A stretch of DNA of 64,000 nucleotides from an uncultured Clostridia bacterium (GTDB lineage: Bacteria; Bacillota; Clostridia; Christensenellales; UBA3700): NCBI GenBank assembly GCA_945992255.1, contig CAMFVQ010000058.1, positions 25,292-89,291 on the forward strand. Reading direction: 5' to 3'. Position 1 is the first letter of the stretch; each line of letters begins with the position of its first letter. Below are positions 29,815 to 64,000 of this stretch, piece by piece. The notes under the pieces were generated by a model, which made no database searches, was not told the DNA's origin, and was given only the letters and a program-made list of their open reading frames with translations. The translations under genes were made by a program, and so were the position numbers.

Positions 29815-29833
29815 ATCGTACTCCTTTATTTTG

Positions 29834-29904
29834 TGCGTGGGGCAGGGGTCGAACCTGCAACCGGCGGAGGTGCAGCCGTGCTTTACCGCTTAAGCTACCC
29901 ACGC
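29834..29904 (-). tRNA. tRNA-like element with a non-canonical anticodon arm (possible pseudo-tRNA)
   Basis: Perfect 7 bp acceptor stem (GCGTGGG/CCCACGC), D arm GCTT/AAGC, and T arm GCAGG-TTCGACC-CCTGC. The anticodon stem is CGGCT/CGCCG with a U-C mismatch, the loop GCACCTC lacks U33, and the variable loop is only 3 nt. Confidence 0.45.
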
Positions 29905-52603: not shown

Positions 52604-53020
52604 ATGAATAGGTTAAAAGAATTGAGGCTCAATCGTAAGCTTACTATAAGAGCCCTTGCAGAAAAAGTAGGTATAAGCCATACTCAAATTACCCATATCG
52701 AGAACGGTAAAAGGAACCTTACCGTTGAAACGGCGCAGCAGTTCGCCAGCTTTTTTGGTGTATCGGTCGACTACCTTTTAGGCGCTGAGCCTTTGGAAAT
52801 GTTCGACGGCTTTGTAGATTCTATGCGTCGTATATTCTACGTTACGAGTATACATGGCGCCGGCGAGGTTTGCCAAGGTCTGCCCTCGTCTATGGAGCCT
52901 CGCTTACGTACCAAGTTGGAAATACTATTTTTATTGCAGGATCAGCAGAACCCGGAGAGCCTAGAGGCTATATACTCGCTTTGTAGGTCGCTCTCTGCTA
53001 AAGCCGATTTTAGTGACTAG
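52604..53020 (+). CDS. CI-like XRE-family repressor
   Basis: N-terminal HTH LTIRALAEKVGISHTQITHIENGKRN. Divergent from the early operon. Confidence 0.8.
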   Translation: MNRLKELRLNRKLTIRALAEKVGISHTQITHIENGKRNLTVETAQQFASFFGVSVDYLLGAEPLEMFDGFVDSMRRIFYVTSIHGAGEVCQGLPSSMEPRLRTKLEILFLLQDQQNPESLEAIYSLCRSLSAKADFSD

Positions 53021-53031
53021 GAGGTTGCCTT

Positions 53032-53610
53032 ATGAAAAAATTAGCTATTTGCTTTTTAGTGTTATTATTATGTTTGTCGTTCTCTGCCTGCTCTGCAGCG
53101 GAGGAGCCTAAGCCTCAAACGGAACCGGCGGCCGACTACGCTGTCTACTCTATTTTTTACCACGCAAATGGTGGCGAGCTCTCGCCTTATAACCCTGTAG
53201 CGTATAACTCGTTTACCCCTAGTTTTACCCTTATTGCACCGGAGCGTGAGGGCTACCGTTTCCTCGGCTGGTCGCTTAATGAGGACGGCAGCGATCCCGT
53301 ACTCGCTCCAGAGGTCGCCAAAGGTACTACCGGAAACCTCCACTACTACGCCGTCTGGGGTAAGCTCTTATCCGTTCTTATAGATAGCAGCAACCCTAGT
53401 TTTTACACCATTACGCCTATCTCTGGCCCTGTGTGCGCTGGAGAGGTTTATACCGTCCATATTGCTACCGCGGAGCCTGTAAGCTCTTTGCAATGGTACT
53501 TTATAGGCGGCGTAGAGCAAATGCCGGATAGTTGCGTTTATGACGAGGAGCTGGGCGTATTTGTAGTTAAGTTTACGCTTACTAAAAGTATTAGAATTAT
53601 GGTTATATAA
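53032..53610 (+). CDS. Prophage lipoprotein with a Listeria-Bacteroides-type repeat domain
   Basis: Signal peptide with the lipobox LSFSAC. The pattern YHANGGE...TLIAPEREGYRFLGW...YYAVW is present. Confidence 0.65.
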   Translation: MKKLAICFLVLLLCLSFSACSAAEEPKPQTEPAADYAVYSIFYHANGGELSPYNPVAYNSFTPSFTLIAPEREGYRFLGWSLNEDGSDPVLAPEVAKGTTGNLHYYAVWGKLLSVLIDSSNPSFYTITPISGPVCAGEVYTVHIATAEPVSSLQWYFIGGVEQMPDSCVYDEELGVFVVKFTLTKSIRIMVI

Positions 53611-53625: not shown

Positions 53626-55152
53626 ATGATTATAGTTGCTTATTGTCGTTACTCAAGCGAGAACCAAAGGGACGGCTATTCTATCGAGGCGCAAACTAGA
53701 GCTATTACCGAGTGGGCTAAGTCTGCAGGCCATACTATAAAGCGGTTTTACGTGGACGAGGCTCGTAGCGCTACCAATGACGACCGCGCCGAGTTTCAGC
53801 GTATGGTAGCCGACGCTGCGTCCGGAACATTTAAAGCCGTAGTAGTTCATAAGCTAGACCGCTTTGCGCGTGATCGCTACGATTCCGCCGTCTACAAGCA
53901 TAAGCTAAAGCAGTTTGGCGTTAGGGTTATATCCGTTCTGGAGCCCCTAGACGACTCTCCGGAGGCTGTCATGATGGAGGCCGTGCTAGAGGGTATGGCC
54001 GAGTACTTTAGTAAGAACCTCGCCCGTGAGGTCTCCAAGGGCAAAAAAGAAACCGCCCTTAAAGCTCAGCATAACGGCGGTTCTATCCCCTACGGGTTTA
54101 CTATAGACAAAGACCGCCATTATATCCCTATCGAGGAGGAGGCGGCGGTAGTTCGTGAAATATTCAAAAGAGTTGACGGCGGCAGTACGCTTGTAGACGT
54201 CACTAGGTGGGCGGTAGCGCAGGGCTACCGTACTAGGCGGAATACTGCTTTTAACATTTCGTTTATTAGGTCTATGCTTAGGTCGCCTATCTATATAGGA
54301 ACCTATAGCTACGGTAGGCGTAGTACCTCTGGCAGAGAACCTATAGTATTTGAGAATTGCATACCGGCTATAGTAGAACCTGCGCTGTTCTACCGTGTAA
54401 ACGATATGCTGAACAAAAGGGCCAGAGGTCCAAAGCAGCGCCAAAAAGAGGAGGACTACCTACTTACCGGCTACCTTTACTGCGGTATCTGCGGAGCCCA
54501 CCTATTTGGCTTTAAGTCCAAGCAAAAGTATAAAGATAAAGAGTACGTAGCTTACTGGTACCGCTGCTCTCATAGGTCGTCACACCGTATGGAGCCAGGA
54601 ACCGAGCGCTGTAAGCTTAAGGGCGTACACAAAGAGGAAATAGAAACCTTTGTTATTGAGAGTATCAAGGCTAAGCTCTTTGGCGAGGATTCTATAAACT
54701 GGATTGTGGCGGAGCTTGGCAAGCGTATTAAAGCAAGGGCTGCCGCCCCTACCGCTGCGCAGCTGTCCGCCTACCAGGAGGAGCTTAAAAAGCTTAGCGG
54801 TCAAAGAGAGCGCTTGCTAGACCTATACCTTTCCGGGGGTCTAGACAAAGAGCTATACGCAAAAAAGAGCGACGAGCTCTATAGCCGTATAGAGTTCTTA
54901 ACTCAAGAGGTAGCCAAGCTCTCCGTACCGTCTATAGAGATCAGCGCCGAGCGTCTCCGCTCTGCCCTTAAGGTTTTTAACGATAGCGCTAATGCCGATA
55001 GCGTAGAGTATAAAAAAAGGCTACTGTCTACTTTTGTAGACTCCGTAGTCTTATCAAACGATGAGGTTATTATAAACTATAAAGTTACTATACCTGGCTG
55101 GAGTTCGTCTAGCGATAGTTTCGTGCGTAAAGCAAATCACGCTTTGACATGA
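53626..55152 (+). CDS. Large serine recombinase (integrase)
   Basis: The N-terminal resolvase domain YCRYSSENQRDGYSIEAQ carries the catalytic Ser. It is followed by a recombinase domain, a Cys-rich zinc ribbon (CGICG...CSH) and a coiled coil. The stop codon is 5 nt from the att core. Confidence 0.9.
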   Translation: MIIVAYCRYSSENQRDGYSIEAQTRAITEWAKSAGHTIKRFYVDEARSATNDDRAEFQRMVADAASGTFKAVVVHKLDRFARDRYDSAVYKHKLKQFGVRVISVLEPLDDSPEAVMMEAVLEGMAEYFSKNLAREVSKGKKETALKAQHNGGSIPYGFTIDKDRHYIPIEEEAAVVREIFKRVDGGSTLVDVTRWAVAQGYRTRRNTAFNISFIRSMLRSPIYIGTYSYGRRSTSGREPIVFENCIPAIVEPALFYRVNDMLNKRARGPKQRQKEEDYLLTGYLYCGICGAHLFGFKSKQKYKDKEYVAYWYRCSHRSSHRMEPGTERCKLKGVHKEEIETFVIESIKAKLFGEDSINWIVAELGKRIKARAAAPTAAQLSAYQEELKKLSGQRERLLDLYLSGGLDKELYAKKSDELYSRIEFLTQEVAKLSVPSIEISAERLRSALKVFNDSANADSVEYKKRLLSTFVDSVVLSNDEVIINYKVTIPGWSSSSDSFVRKANHALT

Positions 55153-56828: not shown

Positions 56829-56904
56829 GGAAGCTTAGCTCAGTTGGGAGAGCATCTGCCTTACAAGCAGAGGGTCATAGGTTCGAGCCCTATAGTTTCC
56901 ACCA
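56829..56904 (+). tRNA. tRNA-Val (anticodon UAC)
   Basis: Folds as a cloverleaf by hand. Anticodon loop CTTACAA. CCA is encoded. Confidence 0.9.
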
Positions 56905-56970
56905 TTGACACAATGTCAACAACCTTGATGTTGTGTCAATATTTTTAAGAAAACATATAATAATGTGTAT

Positions 56971-57046
<76 letters not shown>

Positions 57047-57050
57047 ATAT

Positions 57051-57125
57051 GGCACCATAGCCAAGCGGTAAGGCAAAGCTCTGCAAAAGCTTCACTCCCC
57101 AGTTCAAATCTGGGTGGTGCCTCCA
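57051..57125 (+). tRNA. tRNA-Cys (anticodon GCA)
   Basis: Folds as a cloverleaf. Anticodon arm AAGCT-CTGCAAA-AGCTT. CCA is encoded. Confidence 0.9.
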
Positions 57126-57135
57126 ATAAAAACAG

Positions 57136-57161
57136 CTCTTGCAACAGCAAGAGTTTTTTTT
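57136..57161 (+). terminator. Rho-independent terminator between tRNA-Cys and tRNA-Leu
   Basis: Stem CTCTTGC / GCAAGAG with loop AACA, followed by T8. Confidence 0.6.
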
Positions 57162-57165
57162 ATAC

Positions 57166-57252
57166 GCCGATGTGGTGGAATAGGCAGACACAAGGGACTT
57201 AAAATCCCTCGGAGGCAACTCCGTACCGGTTCAAGTCCGGTCACCGGCACCA
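57166..57252 (+). tRNA. tRNA-Leu (anticodon UAA), long variable arm
   Basis: Anticodon arm AGGGA-CTTAAAA-TCCCT and variable arm CGGAGGCAACTCCG. One A-C mismatch in the acceptor stem. CCA is encoded. Confidence 0.85.
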
Positions 57253-57260
57253 AACCTATG

Positions 57261-57290
57261 AAAGTCCCTATTTGTCGGGACTTTCTTTAT
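57261..57290. terminator. Bidirectional terminator (tRNA-Leu / giant gene)
   Basis: Stem AAAGTCCC / GGGACTTT followed by a T-rich run. Confidence 0.55.
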
Positions 57291-57329
57291 GCTTGGGAAC
57301 AGATTGGGAACAAAAACATTATTTTAATT

Positions 57330-60300
57330 TTATCCGCAATGCTTTAGAAGTTCTTTTTGTTCGCTCCTAGTCAGTCCTAAGGTATGGACATATTGGTTGA
57401 CTTTGTCCATATCGGTAGAATACCCTAAGTATGCAAGCATCAAGTATTTTTGGTTGGCAGTCAAACGCTGGCTTTCCAACATTTGGACAATCTTTTTCTT
57501 TTTGCTTCCTGGTATTACTTGTCCGTTGCGGTCGGTGTCGGCTTTGATATTCTTTGCTAAGCCGACAATCGTTGCCATACTTACAATATCAATACCGCTA
57601 ACAAACAACATGGTCTTAGACTTCTCTTCTGCTATACTGTTCACAATTGTATCCTCAAAGAAGTAGTCGTACACAAACTTTATCATAGCTTGCTTTTCGG
57701 TGTCGTTGGCTTTTGCATAGTTCTTGCTTTTGATAAGCTCTTCCACTTTTTTGTTGGCTTGTTCATATTGTTTTTTTGCACTTTTTAATTCTGTTTTGGT
57801 GAGTGTATAGCTTTCCTTTTCGTATACGAATGTTTGCTTCAGTGATTTTGGAAAGAATGTTGTTTCACCGCTCACCTTGACCAACCTTGCAAGTTCCTTG
57901 TTTAGTTCACTTGAAGTGTCTCCAACCTTGTCACTTAATGCCACAGCTGTGATTGTGTTTATGCGGTCAGCATCTTCTTTTTTCATAGCTCTTGCCAGGT
58001 CTTTCGCTAGTGGCATATTATAAAACTTACTATCCCACTTGTAGACCGCCTCATCATCAATAACATTAGCAGCACCATAGAACAATCTATACATATTCTT
58101 GGTAGGTATACCGCAAAGTGTACCCATCGAGAAAATGAGTTTCTTTGTTGAGTTGGCAAGTTTTTTGTTGTCACCGCTTCCGATAGCCTTTCCAAAGCCT
58201 TGCACTGCAGACAAGCTGTCGTTTAGTGTGCCTAGTGTGAACTCTTCTATTGCATACCCCTCAGTGAACAAGTTGTAGATTTCTTTGATTATAGGTATTC
58301 CGGCAAGCCAACTTGCACCAAACTCTGTCAATATTGCCTCGCCAAAACTTTCATCGTCATCATCTAAATTGTACAACTTCGAGAAAAGTACTGCGAGAAT
58401 ACTTGTATACATTGCAATTGCACTCATTGTTGCAGCGGACTTTGCAAGTTGTTTCGCATTCTTTTTTAGCAAGTTTTCAAGCTCCGTGATTTCCGCTTGG
58501 TTGTTAGACTTCTTAGCTTGTGCAAGTCGTTCTTTGAGCGCTATTTTTTCACCGACTGAATCAATTACTCTGCTTATGTTCTTCATTGCATCACTGCTGA
58601 ACATAGTAAAAGTTCTAGCAAGAATATTATCACTTCGCATCATCGCACTTTTTTCGGTAACCATTGTATTTTGCTGTGTCTCTAGTATTACTTTTTCTAG
58701 CATTTCACCAGCTTTGATTTTGCACTCTTCGCTGTTGATATCTATTCCTAAAGTATCAGCAACCTCAACGCAACACGCTTGGAACACACGACTAACAACA
58801 AAGCGGTCTGCCATTCCGATTGGCTTCATCATCTTTTCTTGCAATTTTCCTAATTTGTCTTCCTTGAGCGATAGGGACAACACTGCTGTGTTCTCATAGT
58901 TTCTTACTTGTGCAAGCGGACAGTATTTATCTATTTCGATTTTTTTATACGGCATAAACATTGCTTTGAGCAGTGACTTGGTGGACAATATATGCCAACT
59001 TGCCATATATGAAGATAGCTGGGTGAACAATACTTTAACATTGAGGGCAAGCAATGCAACCGCAGTGTTTCCCCTTATTTTTTCAAAGAACATATCAAAG
59101 CCACTTCTCTTGGCACGAACACCCACAGCACGTTGCACCATATCATTTAGATATTGTTGACCTTTTTTCCATTCTAGCAAGTCGCCCAAACGCTTTGCCG
59201 AATTCTTGTTTTCTATTCCATCAACTACCGCCGACAAGTCCATATTATACAATTTCTTAAAGTTGTCAATAGGAATTTGCAAATGTGCATAGGTAGTGAC
59301 TTCTTTAATGTGCTTAAGTGCTACATTTTGCAACGGCTTGATTTCGAGCATATGTGCATTCTTGACAGTGTTCTTATTGAATGATGCATTGTCAAGATTG
59401 TCAAATGTTTCGTATGTAATATCCCCCACTGTCATTGCTTTTACGCCATATCTTTTGATTGGTATATAATATGTATTCTTAACATTTGAGCCACCAAAAC
59501 GAATTATATCCGTTCTTCTCTTTTCTTCTCGACATTGTTTGTTGAAGATATCTTCTATAATAGTGACATAGGCAAGGTCAGTTTCGTTGAGTTGGCTCTT
59601 GAGTTGTGCGAGATGATGCTTTGCTACACTTGTCAACTCTTCTTCCACTATCTCGCTTGTTGCAACACCCTTGACTCTAACTTCGTTACCCTCGGTGTCA
59701 GTATATACAAAGCCGTTATACAACAAACCGCTCAATGCATCTTCTCGTTGCATTGTCATATACAATGTAAGTGCGACTTGCAGAGGTATCTCTTGTCCAT
59801 TGTATGTGATTGTGCGTTTATCATACTCATAACCTTTATGTTCGGCAAGGAACTTATCCAGTGGCAACTGTATTTCCATTTGTCTGCGTTCTTTGTTCAT
59901 CACGCCCTCACGGAATTGAGAAAACATACTTGTCCAAAAGCCTTTTTTGTTGTAGCCATCGTGATATCTCATAACCGACATTGGGTCAATGACGTATTCC
60001 AATGCACTTCTTGCTTTATCAAGTAGCTTGCCAAAAAACTTTCTTTCTGCTTGAGGTGTCGTGCGATTCGTTCTATCGATTGCCTCATACTTAACTGCTT
60101 GCTCTGTTGCATTTGCCCATTTACCATTTTGGTATACTTTTTTGTATGTATTGGCAATGTGATATATCTTTGCCATTACTTCATCGAGCATTTTTATTGA
60201 TTGCGATGATATAGTCTTAGTGTCTGCTGTTATCTCGGCAAGGTAAGATATCTTCTCTTTCAACTCTTCCACCAAAACAACTTCACCATATCCCAAATCA

Positions 60301-63300
60301 GCAAGCTGTGGGTTGTCCATACTGTACCACTTGTTCAACTCTACCATTACTTTATGAATTGCACTTACTCGAATATTTCCTTGATACACAAGTTTATTTA
60401 CCGAGCTAAATATTCTGCTTAGCTCCATAGCCATACCATTCTTTTTCATAGCCTTGATACGGTCGATATTGTACATTGTCCTGTTGATATTAAAATGAGT
60501 ATCAATCTGTGTTTGCAAGTCACCAGTTAACTTCTTCCACAATGTTTTTGTTCCGACTTTATCTTTTTCTTTCAGAATGGTTCGCACCATTGCAGCTCTA
60601 AGCGAATGCAACTCTTCGCTATCAAGTGTATCTTTTATTTCTTTGCCAACTTGATTGTCAATAGTGTCTTTTGCGTTTTGGTATGTTTCTTCGAGCTTTT
60701 CGAGAATGTCTTGAGTTGTGTATGTATCGCCTAACAAATATTGCAAGTTTTGGTCTTGGACAAGTTGGTCTAGGCTTATACCCTGTCCGTTCTTTGCTCC
60801 CCATCTGCCATATATCTTGATTGCTTGCTTGTCGTACTTATACTTGATTTCTTGCTTGTCAGTGTCTCTAAACTTGATGCCTTGCAAATAAGGTCTGAGT
60901 GCATCTATTGTTTCCCTCGCACTTTCAACCGCATCCGTCCGCATATCTTGGACAATAGCGTTTGCAAGGATAGTATCAGCTATTTTGCAAGCAATTCCGG
61001 TGTATTCGTTTTCTTTAGCTCTGTTCAAGCCTCTCCACAACTCATCTATCAAGTCGTTTTCGTGCTTGATTTCGGCATAGGTATACTCATCACCAATAAG
61101 CTCCATAACCTTTTTCTCAATAGCTTCTGCCTCTGCTTTGGTGTATACCTTGTCAGTTTCTAATTTACCCCTTGCTTTGACATAATCGGCTCTTTCGCTT
61201 GGTTTTTTGGAATATTCTAAGTTGTCTTTTGTAAATTTTTCACCAAGTGTATTGACTTTATCTTTACTATTGGATATATTATTAGTGAAGAAGTCGTTTT
61301 GAATTCGGTTACCTTCGGGGCCGGAAGCGTTGGTATTTACTTTCGCAACGACTTCTTTATTGTATTTTGTTATATCATATATGTGATAAGTCTTATCATT
61401 TTTAGTTAAGCCTACATTGATTATAATTTCAAATATCTCACCATTAAACATAACTTTATTTAGATAATAAGACATTTTAGAAAACTTCTTATGCTCAACA
61501 TCTACTTCATTTAGAAACTTTGCCTTTTCAACCACATCTCTTAAATTAGACAACTGAACACTTCTTGCTTTATCCGCTAGTTGTGCGAGTTTTTTAGCAT
61601 CACTATTATCCATAATAGCTTTTTTATTATCGCTTAAAGTAAAAACTACATTGCTAAAGTTTTCAATTAAGTATTGTTTTATAATACTATATTTCTTTGC
61701 ACCAGTAAATCCTCTAAGCTTTTCTTCTAACAGCTTATCACTTGTCAAATCAATGATTGGAATATTGTCGCTCTCACTCTCTGTCATTTCCTTTGTTATC
61801 TTGCGTGAATATTGCAATGCTTTTTCATCATCGCCGAGTCTATAATACAATTCCACTCTGCTAAGGCGTGTATTATCCAAAATATAATCAAGCGCTGTGC
61901 TTGCTCCCTCTAGTGCAGTAGTAGTGCGTATACCAAAAAACTTCTTGATAGCATCAACAATTCTTGTCCACAAATTGACTTTTTGGAGTTTGCCTCTAAA
62001 TCTTTCATTGGACAACTCTGCCACCATTTCATATACACTAGTCTTTCCATACTCGTTTTGGAATTCTTTCATATCCTTTATTTGATTGTATATGTCATTG
62101 AGAGTTTTGCATGCTTGTCTCATCTCGTTGGCAAGAAGACTTGGGTTAGTTTCGTACACGCTCAATGCACAATTGGTGGTAGCGTGTATCAACTCGTGTA
62201 ATATTGTTTCAGCCTTATGTTGATTGGTATATCCTGCATCGTTAAAATAACTGATATCTAGCACCACTTCTCTACCATTGTTATAGCCATACCCATCAAT
62301 GCTGTCTCCAAAACTTATGTTTAGCTTGCTTAGCTCGGCATTGGCAAAAACTTTGCTTGCCAACTTTTTTATATCTTCATTGGTATTGAATACATTGAAT
62401 ATGGTGCGTATTTCTTTCAATGTGCATTCGCCTTGTTCAATATTTATTGTTGTTTGGGTATAGGCAATCTCTGTCAAACTTTGGTTGATAAGTTGGGCAT
62501 ATCGTTTAAGTCCTTTTTCGTGTTCAGACTTCCACTCTTGAGAATGTGCCGTTGCACCAAAATACAACAAATCTTCTAGTTCTTGAATGTTTTTCTTGTT
62601 TGTCAAATAATGGGCAAATGCTTGTCCTATTCTTTCTTCACCATTGTTTAGTCTAGATATAATATCTATGCTTGGTGTGTTCCTTAGCGCTTCTCCCAAT
62701 ATTGAGCTGGTAGACCAACTTGTTCTTCCGCCGTTGGTTATCGCTTGTTTTAGCTCTTCCACAAAGAAAATTGTGTCTTCGTATTCTGCGGTTTCCTCAA
62801 TATTGGTGGCAGTAGGTTTTTTTGAGTATTGTATTTTATTCTCAAACTCTATATTTCCAAAATTCTCTTGCTCTCCTACCCATTCTTTTCCATTCCAAAC
62901 TTGTAATTCATAAGCTGGCAATTCTAAATCATAATTATATTGTAGTCGTTCTTCACCTTTATGAAAATAGTTTTCAAGTCCGCTTACATAATCACTTTGA
63001 GTAGGCTTTCTTCCTTTTAAATATACCGCTTTTGATTTACTTTTTTCAATCGGCATATCGAATTGTACATAATTCTTTTCTTTAGTATATGCATTGTCTA
63101 CAATACTTTTTAGCCACTTGCTTGCACGTGTAGTCATATTTGCATTAGATAAGTCTATGTGTCCTCGTGCCAACATTTCTGTCCTATCTTGTGCAAACGA
63201 ATAAGCTTGCTCTTCATTGTTATAAACCCATCTATCATAAAACTGTTCATCGAGTATATTGTCTTTACTAACTACTTTACCATTATACTTATAACCTATT

Positions 63301-64000
63301 TCGACCTCATATCCTAATTGGTCATCAATTTTGTCAACAACAAATACTCTTTCACCTTTTTCCTTTATTTGGTTTACAAGTGCAATTTGTTCTTGCTTTT
63401 TCTTTTCGTTTTCTGCTCGAATATCTTCAGCTCTATTCCTCTTTCCTTGAACATATTCCAATTCTCTTTGCAACTCTTCAACGCTCATATCTTCAATGCG
63501 TTCTATGTCTAAACCGTAAAAATCGGTTTCATTATAAAACTTACCTGTGTGGTGCCAACCTGTATAAGACAAAAACTCTTTTTTCAGTTGTGACAATGTA
63601 AACTTAGACAAAATATCCAACTTCTCTTGCGATATATCATTATTGGACAAAACTTCCATTATTGCAGTCTTTGTCCACTTTGACATTGGCATTTCTCCGT
63701 TTTGATAGCTTTCGTAAGCATTTACGGACATACTTTGTCCTATATATCCTTTGCCTTTTAGTGAGTATTGAGTTTCATCTTTTGTAAAATTTTCAGTATT
63801 AGTGTTGACATTTTCTCTACTTTTGGATATATTATTTGTAGAAACATCATTGTCGGCTTGAAACTTCGAGTTTATCTCGTATGAGTTCATTATACCGCCA
63901 GTGATGTTTTTTATTTGTGTAATATCTTTTAATAATCTTCCTTTCGTGGTGATTATGGTGTTTATTTTTCCTTGATAAAAATTATTCCCTACCTTGAAAA
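57330..64000 (-). CDS. Giant multidomain (polyvalent-like) protein, 5' end outside the window
   Basis: The tracked ORF is 2186 aa, but the frame stays open from 63891 to 64000 (FKVGNNFYQGKINTIITTKGRLLKDITQIKNITGGI-MNSY...). It has the HExxH motif ILHELIHATT, repeated linker modules and C-terminal hydrophobic segments. Confidence 0.75.
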   Translation of the reverse strand, partial: FKVGNNFYQGKINTIITTKGRLLKDITQIKNITGGIMNSYEINSKFQADNDVSTNNISKSRENVNTNTENFTKDETQYSLKGKGYIGQSMSVNAYESYQNGEMPMSKWTKTAIMEVLSNNDISQEKLDILSKFTLSQLKKEFLSYTGWHHTGKFYNETDFYGLDIERIEDMSVEELQRELEYVQGKRNRAEDIRAENEKKKQEQIALVNQIKEKGERVFVVDKIDDQLGYEVEIGYKYNGKVVSKDNILDEQFYDRWVYNNEEQAYSFAQDRTEMLARGHIDLSNANMTTRASKWLKSIVDNAYTKEKNYVQFDMPIEKSKSKAVYLKGRKPTQSDYVSGLENYFHKGEERLQYNYDLELPAYELQVWNGKEWVGEQENFGNIEFENKIQYSKKPTATNIEETAEYEDTIFFVEELKQAITNGGRTSWSTSSILGEALRNTPSIDIISRLNNGEERIGQAFAHYLTNKKNIQELEDLLYFGATAHSQEWKSEHEKGLKRYAQLINQSLTEIAYTQTTINIEQGECTLKEIRTIFNVFNTNEDIKKLASKVFANAELSKLNISFGDSIDGYGYNNGREVVLDISYFNDAGYTNQHKAETILHELIHATTNCALSVYETNPSLLANEMRQACKTLNDIYNQIKDMKEFQNEYGKTSVYEMVAELSNERFRGKLQKVNLWTRIVDAIKKFFGIRTTTALEGASTALDYILDNTRLSRVELYYRLGDDEKALQYSRKITKEMTESESDNIPIIDLTSDKLLEEKLRGFTGAKKYSIIKQYLIENFSNVVFTLSDNKKAIMDNSDAKKLAQLADKARSVQLSNLRDVVEKAKFLNEVDVEHKKFSKMSYYLNKVMFNGEIFEIIINVGLTKNDKTYHIYDITKYNKEVVAKVNTNASGPEGNRIQNDFFTNNISNSKDKVNTLGEKFTKDNLEYSKKPSERADYVKARGKLETDKVYTKAEAEAIEKKVMELIGDEYTYAEIKHENDLIDELWRGLNRAKENEYTGIACKIADTILANAIVQDMRTDAVESARETIDALRPYLQGIKFRDTDKQEIKYKYDKQAIKIYGRWGAKNGQGISLDQLVQDQNLQYLLGDTYTTQDILEKLEETYQNAKDTIDNQVGKEIKDTLDSEELHSLRAAMVRTILKEKDKVGTKTLWKKLTGDLQTQIDTHFNINRTMYNIDRIKAMKKNGMAMELSRIFSSVNKLVYQGNIRVSAIHKVMVELNKWYSMDNPQLADLGYGEVVLVEELKEKISYLAEITADTKTISSQSIKMLDEVMAKIYHIANTYKKVYQNGKWANATEQAVKYEAIDRTNRTTPQAERKFFGKLLDKARSALEYVIDPMSVMRYHDGYNKKGFWTSMFSQFREGVMNKERRQMEIQLPLDKFLAEHKGYEYDKRTITYNGQEIPLQVALTLYMTMQREDALSGLLYNGFVYTDTEGNEVRVKGVATSEIVEEELTSVAKHHLAQLKSQLNETDLAYVTIIEDIFNKQCREEKRRTDIIRFGGSNVKNTYYIPIKRYGVKAMTVGDITYETFDNLDNASFNKNTVKNAHMLEIKPLQNVALKHIKEVTTYAHLQIPIDNFKKLYNMDLSAVVDGIENKNSAKRLGDLLEWKKGQQYLNDMVQRAVGVRAKRSGFDMFFEKIRGNTAVALLALNVKVLFTQLSSYMASWHILSTKSLLKAMFMPYKKIEIDKYCPLAQVRNYENTAVLSLSLKEDKLGKLQEKMMKPIGMADRFVVSRVFQACCVEVADTLGIDINSEECKIKAGEMLEKVILETQQNTMVTEKSAMMRSDNILARTFTMFSSDAMKNISRVIDSVGEKIALKERLAQAKKSNNQAEITELENLLKKNAKQLAKSAATMSAIAMYTSILAVLFSKLYNLDDDDESFGEAILTEFGASWLAGIPIIKEIYNLFTEGYAIEEFTLGTLNDSLSAVQGFGKAIGSGDNKKLANSTKKLIFSMGTLCGIPTKNMYRLFYGAANVIDDEAVYKWDSKFYNMPLAKDLARAMKKEDADRINTITAVALSDKVGDTSSELNKELARLVKVSGETTFFPKSLKQTFVYEKESYTLTKTELKSAKKQYEQANKKVEELIKSKNYAKANDTEKQAMIKFVYDYFFEDTIVNSIAEEKSKTMLFVSGIDIVSMATIVGLAKNIKADTDRNGQVIPGSKKKKIVQMLESQRLTANQKYLMLAYLGYSTDMDKVNQYVHTLGLTRSEQKELLKHCG

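Follow-up and report, generated by a model that had tools for sequence, protein, structure and literature searches.

Which kind of protein is encoded by an open reading frame (ORF) of more than two thousand codons that ends beside a tRNA cluster in an uncultured Clostridia bacterium, and what would such a chain be made for? The frame occupies the right edge of the DNA analysed here, a stretch of 64,000 nucleotides (nt) from contig CAMFVQ010000058.1 (assembly GCA_945992255.1, positions 25,292 to 89,291), which at its whole length we call the window. Polyvalent proteins are regarded as the weapons which a phage fires first into a cell. In phages, their genes lie in the late region, and the products are predicted to enter the host by injection and to undergo processing by metallopeptidases of their own (Iyer et al., PMC5512222). 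The answer, which we favour with moderate confidence, is that the frame encodes such a phage-type polyvalent protein: as the last late-operon gene of a temperate podovirus-like prophage, it would render a product that is packed into the capsid, ejected at infection and cut by its own zincin-type metallopeptidase.

57330..64000, reverse strand: giant gene, read here as a polyvalent-protein gene; codons 201-2422 of 2,422, plus the stop codon at 57330-57332

In the list of ORFs, the gene appears as a frame of 2,186 amino acids (aa) counted from an ATG (57330..63890, reverse strand), and a preliminary description of the window had proposed that it continues past the edge. It does: translation of 57330-63998 on the same strand renders 2,223 codons, stop-free as far as the window edge, and a database protein of 2,422 aa (P0001), 100% identical across the window part, represents the full product. 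P0001 extends 236 residues further than the listed ORF; the ATG at 63890 is therefore internal, and the first 200 codons, the 5' part of the gene, lie beyond the window. Chance origin of the open frame is excluded by its length in DNA of this composition (34-40% G+C around the ORF). The numbering of P0001 is used throughout, the codon of residue r beginning at 63890-3(r-237), and the coordinates of all parts were confirmed by translation.

It is the domains of the homologues, and not domain matches of P0001 itself, that support its identity as a polyvalent protein. In the variable parts of the relatives we observed ART-PolyVal (up to three copies), PBECR3, PBECR5, LPD3, DUF3990 and, in the one relative P0023, MuF_C, all of them Pfam families defined on polyvalent proteins (PMC5512222). 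Domains of disparate biochemical activity in one large chain, a hallmark of the class, are thus clearly combined in homologues which share the C-terminal module of P0001. Full-length alignment revealed a common family plan, consisting of an N-terminal Gly-rich domain with the motif EGxEE, a first metallopeptidase, variable cassettes and a conserved C-terminal module; the giant gene of the IMG/VR contig L016 (2,906 aa) contains this plan completely. How common the family is depends strongly on the type of search: a word-indexed homology search rendered 6 relatives, a profile search with the C-terminal module 32 (all 1,593-2,978 aa), and HMMER, run exhaustively over 1.84 billion representatives, 7,068 clusters at a cut-off of E<=1e-3 (4,625 at E<=1e-30), by which the extreme rarity suggested by the first search was overturned. 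Almost all cluster members are 2,000-3,900 aa long and carry the module at their extreme C-terminus; a few proteins of ~1,000 aa consist of the C-terminal module alone. Two apparent stand-alone modules, P0131 (1,055 aa) and P0140 (960 aa), are either complete genes or ORFs cut by contig ends.

57333..61160, reverse strand: all-alpha C-terminal module (residues 1147-2422), common to all relatives
58350..58439, reverse strand: conserved hydrophobic helix (residues 2054-2072) with the acidic cluster LYNLDDDDE, from hydropathy and alignments

The C-terminal module comprises ~1,270 aa and was modelled by AlphaFold (AF2) with a predicted local distance difference test (pLDDT) score of 76.6 and a predicted template modelling (pTM) score of 0.64. 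Few of its residues are invariant, among them those of a Y-x-P and a G-x-P motif. The hydrophobic stretch SAATMSAIAMYTSILAVLF, already pointed out in the preliminary description, is located in this module at 58383-58439; it is one of just two hydropathy peaks of the protein and is followed by DDDDE. A peak at the equivalent position is present in P0003, P0004, P0018 and P0032, and a DDEDED consensus is seen in the alignments A1, A2 and A5. Profile search of the module against PDB sequences, including N4 gp50 and the T7 core proteins, gave no match, fold search against the PDB no significant structure (best E 0.03), and the module has no PHROG or NCBIfam match and no Pfam family common to six diverse members. 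Among the predicted structures of BFVD, however, 70 match it at E<=1e-3; of the top 50, nearly all are the second or third segment of a very long protein from an uncultured phage, with names such as PolyVal ADP-ribosyltransferase, Nuclease, MuF C-terminal domain or large polyvalent protein-associated domain, and it should be noted that BFVD entries are named after the N-terminal domains of their proteins. Giant polyvalent proteins of phages commonly carry this conserved, uncharacterised C-terminal module; it is not a known polyvalent-protein domain and is not covered by the Pfam polyvalent models tested. We regard it as the signature of the family and as a putative chassis for virion incorporation or ejection.

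Upstream of this module, the protein is a string of cassettes. Mapping onto the relatives together with a segment-by-segment scan, from which the module borders were derived, divides P0001 into five separable modules, the zincin being the sole predicted enzyme among them. They are preceded by a helical linker (residues 1-75), which in the relatives sits after the first metallopeptidase.

63756..64000, reverse strand: C-terminal part of module 1 (residues 76-281), divergent LPD3-like; phmmer, residues 80-278 against P0009 410-607
63756-63767, reverse strand: YSLK linker ending module 1, motif checked by translation
62829..63755, reverse strand: module 2, cargo cassette (residues 282-590), no Pfam or PDB match
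61800..62828, reverse strand: zincin module (residues 591-933), bounded by YSKK at 62817-62828 and YSRK at 61800-61811
61215..61769, reverse strand: LPD3-like cassette (residues 944-1128) with 32-aa tail, followed by a YSKK linker at 61203-61214

The scan of the segments against Pfam detected LPD3, SprT-like and M76 matches only, all of them below threshold. The cassette of residues 944-1128 matches LPD3 (PF18798) with E=5.2e-4 and 20.6 bits over profile positions 10-111 of 114, misses the gathering threshold of 27 bits and hence is not a curated member, though probably a divergent LPD3. It is similar to P0009 889-1057 (phmmer 4e-38). Both this cassette and module 1 close with a tail of 32 aa (ND.xTNNISxSxxxVNT..E.FTKD..YSxK), the two copies sharing 59% identity. 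Module 2 contains a domain with the motif 'GWHHTG' (about residues 284-385), and a solo version of the whole module exists as a 321-aa ORF in the gut phage contig MT836402.1 (28% identity, 99% coverage). The first 100 residues of module 2 (GWHHTG..FY) also recur in small hypothetical proteins of Firmicutes plasmids, the hosts being Enterococcus, Lactiplantibacillus, Listeria, Ruminococcus and Brevibacillus; in an E. faecalis plasmid (NZ_CP138651.1, 37328-37942), the gene is preceded by traF and by a gene for a cytosine methyltransferase, and such surroundings suggest an establishment or anti-defence gene.

The preliminary description had further mentioned repeated linker modules, and indeed, besides the tail occurring twice, YS[KLR]K linkers are found at four module borders, where [QE]YS[LKR]K motifs lie at residues 278, 591, 930 and 1129. 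The broader motif [YF][SN][RKL]K was observed 5 times in P0001 (0.56 expected from shuffles), four of the occurrences being these linkers. Among 165 relatives, the variable parts contain [YF]S[LKR]K 122 times (21.7 expected), in contrast to 32 times (22.6 expected) in the C-terminal modules, where there is no real enrichment; since the motif is enriched in the variable parts and not in the C-terminal module, the linkers are real junctions. The comparison with L016 points in the same direction. This contig shares 95.6% DNA identity with the window over 57278-61217 and 61771-62829, and the homology breaks at residues 590/591, ~943 and 1128, which coincide with the linker motifs. At the protein level, the zincin modules of both are 82-100% and the C-terminal modules 85-100% identical, whereas residues 949-1108 share only 15-32% identity between flanks of 90% identity or more, and the cassettes N-terminal to residue 590 are wholly different; module 2 is not present in L016. 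Because the homology breaks at the linkers, the cassettes must have been swapped there, and at the level of sequence this demonstrates their exchange between phages through recombination at the linkers.

The preliminary description had noted a single zincin-type HExxH motif and likened the chain to proteins with an internal metallopeptidase. Exactly one such motif is present, HELIH at residues 801-805 (62184-62198), with E857 (62028-62030) as the predicted third zinc ligand. A hidden Markov model (HMM) of the family metallopeptidase, built on at least 30 relatives, matches residues 692-889 with 20 bits, HExxH falling on HExxH and the 'YEMVAEL' of P0001 on the family helix 'E-[IV]-VA'. An alignment of 28 sequences shows no variation at E802 and almost none at H801, H805 and E857 (H213, E214, H217 and E269 denote the invariant or near-invariant metallopeptidase residues of this alignment); the two His, the Glu and the downstream Glu are hence conserved, in agreement with that comparison. 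Other comparisons are in accordance with a zincin and stay below significance: SprT-like (E=0.008) and M76 (E=0.078) in Pfam, both under threshold, and six of the ten matches in a PDB profile search, namely Wss1/WLM, projannalysin, proabylysin, a substrate-import-associated zinc metallohydrolase, M13 and IrrE. The AF2 model reaches a pLDDT of 63 overall and 71-89 in the core, whose elements follow each other in the order helix, three strands, HExxH helix. Based on motif and profile evidence, we accept the assignment of residues 591-933 as a predicted zincin-type metallopeptidase. This domain corresponds to the second metallopeptidase copy of the close relative L016, and two copies are likewise present in P0004. 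In the latter (gene at L003 3065-11731) they span residues 416-652 and 736-884; the first, family-typical copy is without HExxH, which is retained in the second copy only.

Where, then, does the gene belong? The homology to L016 stops at 57278, 52 nt beyond the stop codon and within a hairpin after the tRNA-Leu gene, and this position is therefore taken as the right end of the prophage. As had been described, a tRNA cluster adjoins: four tRNA genes, 78 nt away from the stop codon. The cluster is likely chromosomal and the integration landmark of the prophage.

57262..57329, no strand: right end of the prophage with the giant gene; L016 homology (blastn) stops at 57278
56829..57252, forward strand: tRNA-Val-TAC, Gly-GCC, Cys-GCA and Leu-TAA cluster (ARAGORN)

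The late-gene context is taken from related loci, in which the homologues do occupy a position among phage late and virion genes. In L008 the order is portal (P22/SU10), Prp protease, scaffold, major capsid protein, several genes, giant gene and tail protein; in L017 Prp, scaffold and capsid are followed, after further genes, by the giant gene, two small ORFs, an Amidase_3 endolysin and host genes. A gene matching phrog_511, 'internal virion protein' (E about 1e-62), precedes the giant gene by two positions in L017 and by four in L008. The giant gene closes the late region in L003, L004 and L009, where it converges on a large serine recombinase and is preceded by fibre genes and a retroelement reverse transcriptase. 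The protein of L009 is also encoded in L010, but there five tRNA genes and sporulation genes of the host come next; this is the integrated right junction. As in the window, tRNA genes stand directly 3' of the giant gene in both L010 and L001. Across loci, the giant gene is preceded by a conserved series of genes for proteins of ~150 aa, ~293-344 aa and ~348-670 aa; in L016, products of 886, 358, 111, 173, 150, 293 and 348 aa come before it in this order. Two side observations were made in these loci. A diversity-generating-retroelement-type RVT_1 together with an LRR_5 ORF lies a few genes upstream in the same late region of L004 (4895-5935) and L015. The island at L001 6009-17656 consists of a tyrosine integrase, cI, cro, three small ORFs, the gene of P0003 (an intact giant gene, 2,551 aa), a tRNA-Gly gene and host genes; the 140-aa ORF just upstream of P0003 is a fragment of the usual 670-aa preceding gene, so that a deletion has removed nearly the whole phage and left the giant gene open.

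Taken as a mechanism, the favoured reading would run as follows. The sequence shows a string of cassettes (here two LPD3-like modules, a 310-aa cargo module and one zincin metallopeptidase), joined by [QRE]-[YF]-S-[KRL]-K linkers and fused to the 1,270-aa all-alpha C-terminal module; its gene would belong to a prophage of a Clostridia-type host, the right end of which abuts the tRNA-Leu gene. With its hydrophobic helix and acidic patch, the C-terminal module would bring the chain into the capsid, where it would serve as an internal or ejection protein, and at infection the chain would leave the capsid together with the DNA. The zincin would then cut it, plausibly at the linkers, which we infer to be protease sites, and the freed cassettes would act as effectors on the new host. 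We infer packaging, ejection and processing from the argument of Iyer et al. (PMC5512222) and from the analogous protein gp47 of phage phi24B.

Several known systems resemble this picture to a different extent. With the phage polyvalent proteins of Iyer et al., P0001 shares the giant multi-module chain, the embedded zincin-like metallopeptidase and the LPD3-like modules, its relatives contribute ART-PolyVal, PBECR and MuF_C, and the late-gene position is common to both; in contrast to them, the domains of P0001 itself all remain below curated thresholds, and what defines the family is its module of 1,270 aa at the C-terminus, the variable cassettes being N-terminal and central. In Clostridium clostridioforme, the prophages LM41 phi1 and phi4, which release particles and are predicted to be podoviruses, carry at their 3' end an 8-kb ORF with similarity to LPD3 (PMC11318856). 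The very large 3' ORF, the temperate predicted podovirus of ~41 kb and the gut Clostridia host are in accordance with our locus, and the 8-kb ORF, likened to P0001 by description only, is likely homologous to it. In phi24B, gp47 (vb_24B_48, about 2,807-2,811 aa) is a polyvalent protein that combines a metallopeptidase with LPD1, LPD5 and LPD38, and its gene closes the genome of this temperate podovirus (L021 29149-37572); proteomics showed it to be an abundant virion component, it cannot be seen in the reconstruction, and it was proposed to be a capsid-packed ejection protein (10.64898/2026.04.10.717836). Homology of gp47 to the C-terminal module was considered and rejected (hhalign probability 0.16%; no match with a jackhmmer profile of 185 sequences), and gp47 therefore supports that P0001 works like it, not that it is a member of the same family. 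The sole stretch aligned by hhalign, 'F..hydrophobic helix..DDDD', is like residues 1990-2085 and non-significant (E 0.38); this local feature does recur, however, in a giant protein whose presence in virions is experimental.

The same logic, a conserved domain for virion incorporation combined with variable effectors delivered with the DNA, is known from the MuF-fused polymorphic toxins and from SPP1 gp7 and Mu gp30. Here, however, the polarity is the opposite one, with the conserved part at the C-terminus, the size is far greater and several cassettes are present; the Phage_Mu_F domain gave no match at E<=10 in P0001, P0002, P0003 and P0004. The N4 virion RNA polymerase gp50 and the Dar proteins of P1 (DarB, DdrB) likewise are very large, packed in the capsid and injected, and both N4 gp50 and P1 DdrB contain a metallopeptidase domain according to Iyer et al. 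(PMC5512222), whereas P0001 contains neither an RNA polymerase nor a methylase or helicase domain. When PDB chains including gp50 (entry 9pnt) were searched by profile, no match was obtained, and the best structural resemblance between the zincin model and gp50 was not significant (E 0.94, template modelling score 0.29).

Caution is needed for several reasons, and the following observations weigh against the favoured reading. The whole of P0001 matches nothing above curated thresholds in Pfam, PHROGs and NCBIfam; none of the characterised virion proteins searched, gp47 included, is detectably homologous to its C-terminal module; the zincin model is of only moderate confidence (pLDDT 63) and found no significant match in the PDB by Foldseek; and in the window the giant gene is seen with its 3' flank only, that is, the prophage end and the tRNA genes. 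Above all, P0001 begins inside the helix after the first metallopeptidase and lacks about 600 N-terminal residues common to at least 30 relatives, comprising the Gly-rich domain and the first metallopeptidase, which are nearly universal in the family. This copy may hence be non-functional, and since these domains are absent, it may sit in a rearranged or decaying prophage.

From here it is a short step to regarding the gene as a relic, a 5'-truncated, recombined copy in a decaying prophage that has no present function in virion delivery and is being lost or tolerated. Clear remnants do exist elsewhere in the family: P0002 has lost most of its C-terminal module by internal deletion, and in L001 a lysogeny module is fused to the fragment of the upstream neighbour and the giant gene. 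On the other hand, all 2,422 codons have stayed open, the catalytic residues of the zincin are intact, and the ratio of non-synonymous to synonymous substitution rates (dN/dS) towards the phage copy L016 amounts to 0.24 in the zincin and 0.11 in the C-terminal module. By these values the sequences show the giant gene to be under purifying selection, though much of the divergence may date from functional lineages. We consider the relic a serious possibility with rather less than an even chance; it concerns the state of the window copy and does not compete with the account given for the function of the family.

An external component of the tail (tape-measure-like, needle or envelope-penetrating) instead of a cargo inside the capsid seems unlikely to us. 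The great length, the mostly helical nature and the hydrophobic helix would suit such a role, as would the tail protein following in L008 and the fibre genes preceding in L004. Yet no tape-measure or tail family of Pfam or PHROGs is matched, and as the last late gene after the fibre genes, the giant gene does not lie between chaperones and baseplate, for which reasons a tape measure protein was rejected. In addition, the portals are of the P22/SU10 type with compact modules and no tube or sheath family appears in those gene tables of related loci that were inspected, neighbouring genes match 'internal virion protein', and the cargo of the relatives (ADP-ribosyltransferases, RNases) works inside cells.

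Still less weight is given to capture by the host, in which the gene would be used against incoming phages or rival elements (superinfection exclusion). The idea was raised by Iyer et al. for chromosomal polyvalent proteins (PMC5512222) and would agree with the persistence of intact giant genes in stripped-down islands such as L001; the identity of 95.6% at the DNA level to a viral contig over about 5 kb, however, implies that the host copy was acquired recently and has not long been domesticated.

The preliminary description had compared the protein with polyvalent proteins of phages and of conjugative elements alike. Its first half stands by virtue of the homologues' domains, whereas transfer as part of a conjugative element via a type IV secretion system (T4SS) is very improbable: neither in P0001 nor in any of more than 10 related loci was an ArdC-N, primase, relaxase or T4SS gene found, and PBECR nucleases and MuF_C have been described chiefly in phage-type polyvalent proteins, this notwithstanding that the polyvalent class is also known from conjugative elements (PMC5512222) and that small proteins of Firmicutes plasmids contain the GWHHTG sub-domain, in one case close to traF. 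For the PBECR group it should be added that PBECR2 is confined to phage-type polyvalent proteins, while PBECR domains are also present in some T4SS elements (PMC5512222). An adhesin on the cell surface or a cell-wall protein, encoded in an ordinary stretch of the chromosome, the outcome named beforehand as speaking against a polyvalent protein, has nothing but size in its favour and can practically be dismissed, given an N-terminus (MSSPKPYSNIEDIKD) that is not hydrophobic, no signal peptide, LPxTG or adhesin repeats, no adhesin or cell-wall families in Pfam and NCBIfam, only two hydropathy peaks, both internal, and a phage context for every homologue.

The window contains a second prophage (15643-55142), complete-looking and 39.5 kb long, with a G+C content of 0.45-0.50 compared to 0.39-0.42 in its flanks. 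A 2.9-kb contig from another sample (L018) represents the empty site: it joins window position 55143 to 15642 with a 3-nt overlap and reveals that the 39.5-kb prophage interrupts a 292-aa ORF. As L018 sets the right end at 55142, the tRNA cluster and the giant gene lie outside this prophage, and membership of the giant gene in the 39.5-kb prophage was rejected; L018 also reaches the Exo_endo_phos gene and, of the tRNA genes, the first one at least, which are therefore chromosomal. The large serine recombinase gene at 53626-55152 crosses the junction by about 10 nt and its product is only 29% identical to the recombinases beside giant genes elsewhere. Among the ORFs of the structural region of this prophage lies a tRNA-Gly gene (29833-29904, reverse strand) with the anticodon ACC, which is unusual in bacterial tRNA-Gly. 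Between a cI-like repressor (52604-53020) and the recombinase, 53032-53610 on the forward strand encodes a 192-aa protein with a Listeria-Bacteroides repeat (Flg_new), possibly a moron expressed in the lysogen.

Giant polyvalent proteins and similar giant ORFs at the end of phage genomes are already known. Not found in the paper of Iyer et al. or in the libraries searched is the conserved C-terminal module together with a system of linker-bounded cassettes, which spans thousands of clusters lacking both annotation and a solved structure. Going beyond the single gene, we tentatively suggest that the 1,270-aa module is a widespread capsid-internal ejection chassis by which interchangeable effectors are loaded into podovirus-like phages, the linkers serving both as cleavage sites of the resident zincin and as sites of micro-homology for exchange; we put this forward as a possibility rather than as an expectation. 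The family bears on the question how giant polyvalent proteins lacking a MuF domain enter the virion, and its clear gene position, as the last late gene by genes for internal virion proteins, and its sharply defined cassette junctions make it testable whether the module is a packaging or ejection device, whether the junctions are cleavage sites and which activities the cassettes have. The cassettes form a natural catalogue of candidate anti-defence effectors of phages of gut Clostridia, and the ejection chassis, if true, would be a second general solution, besides MuF, for the injection of protein arsenals by phages.

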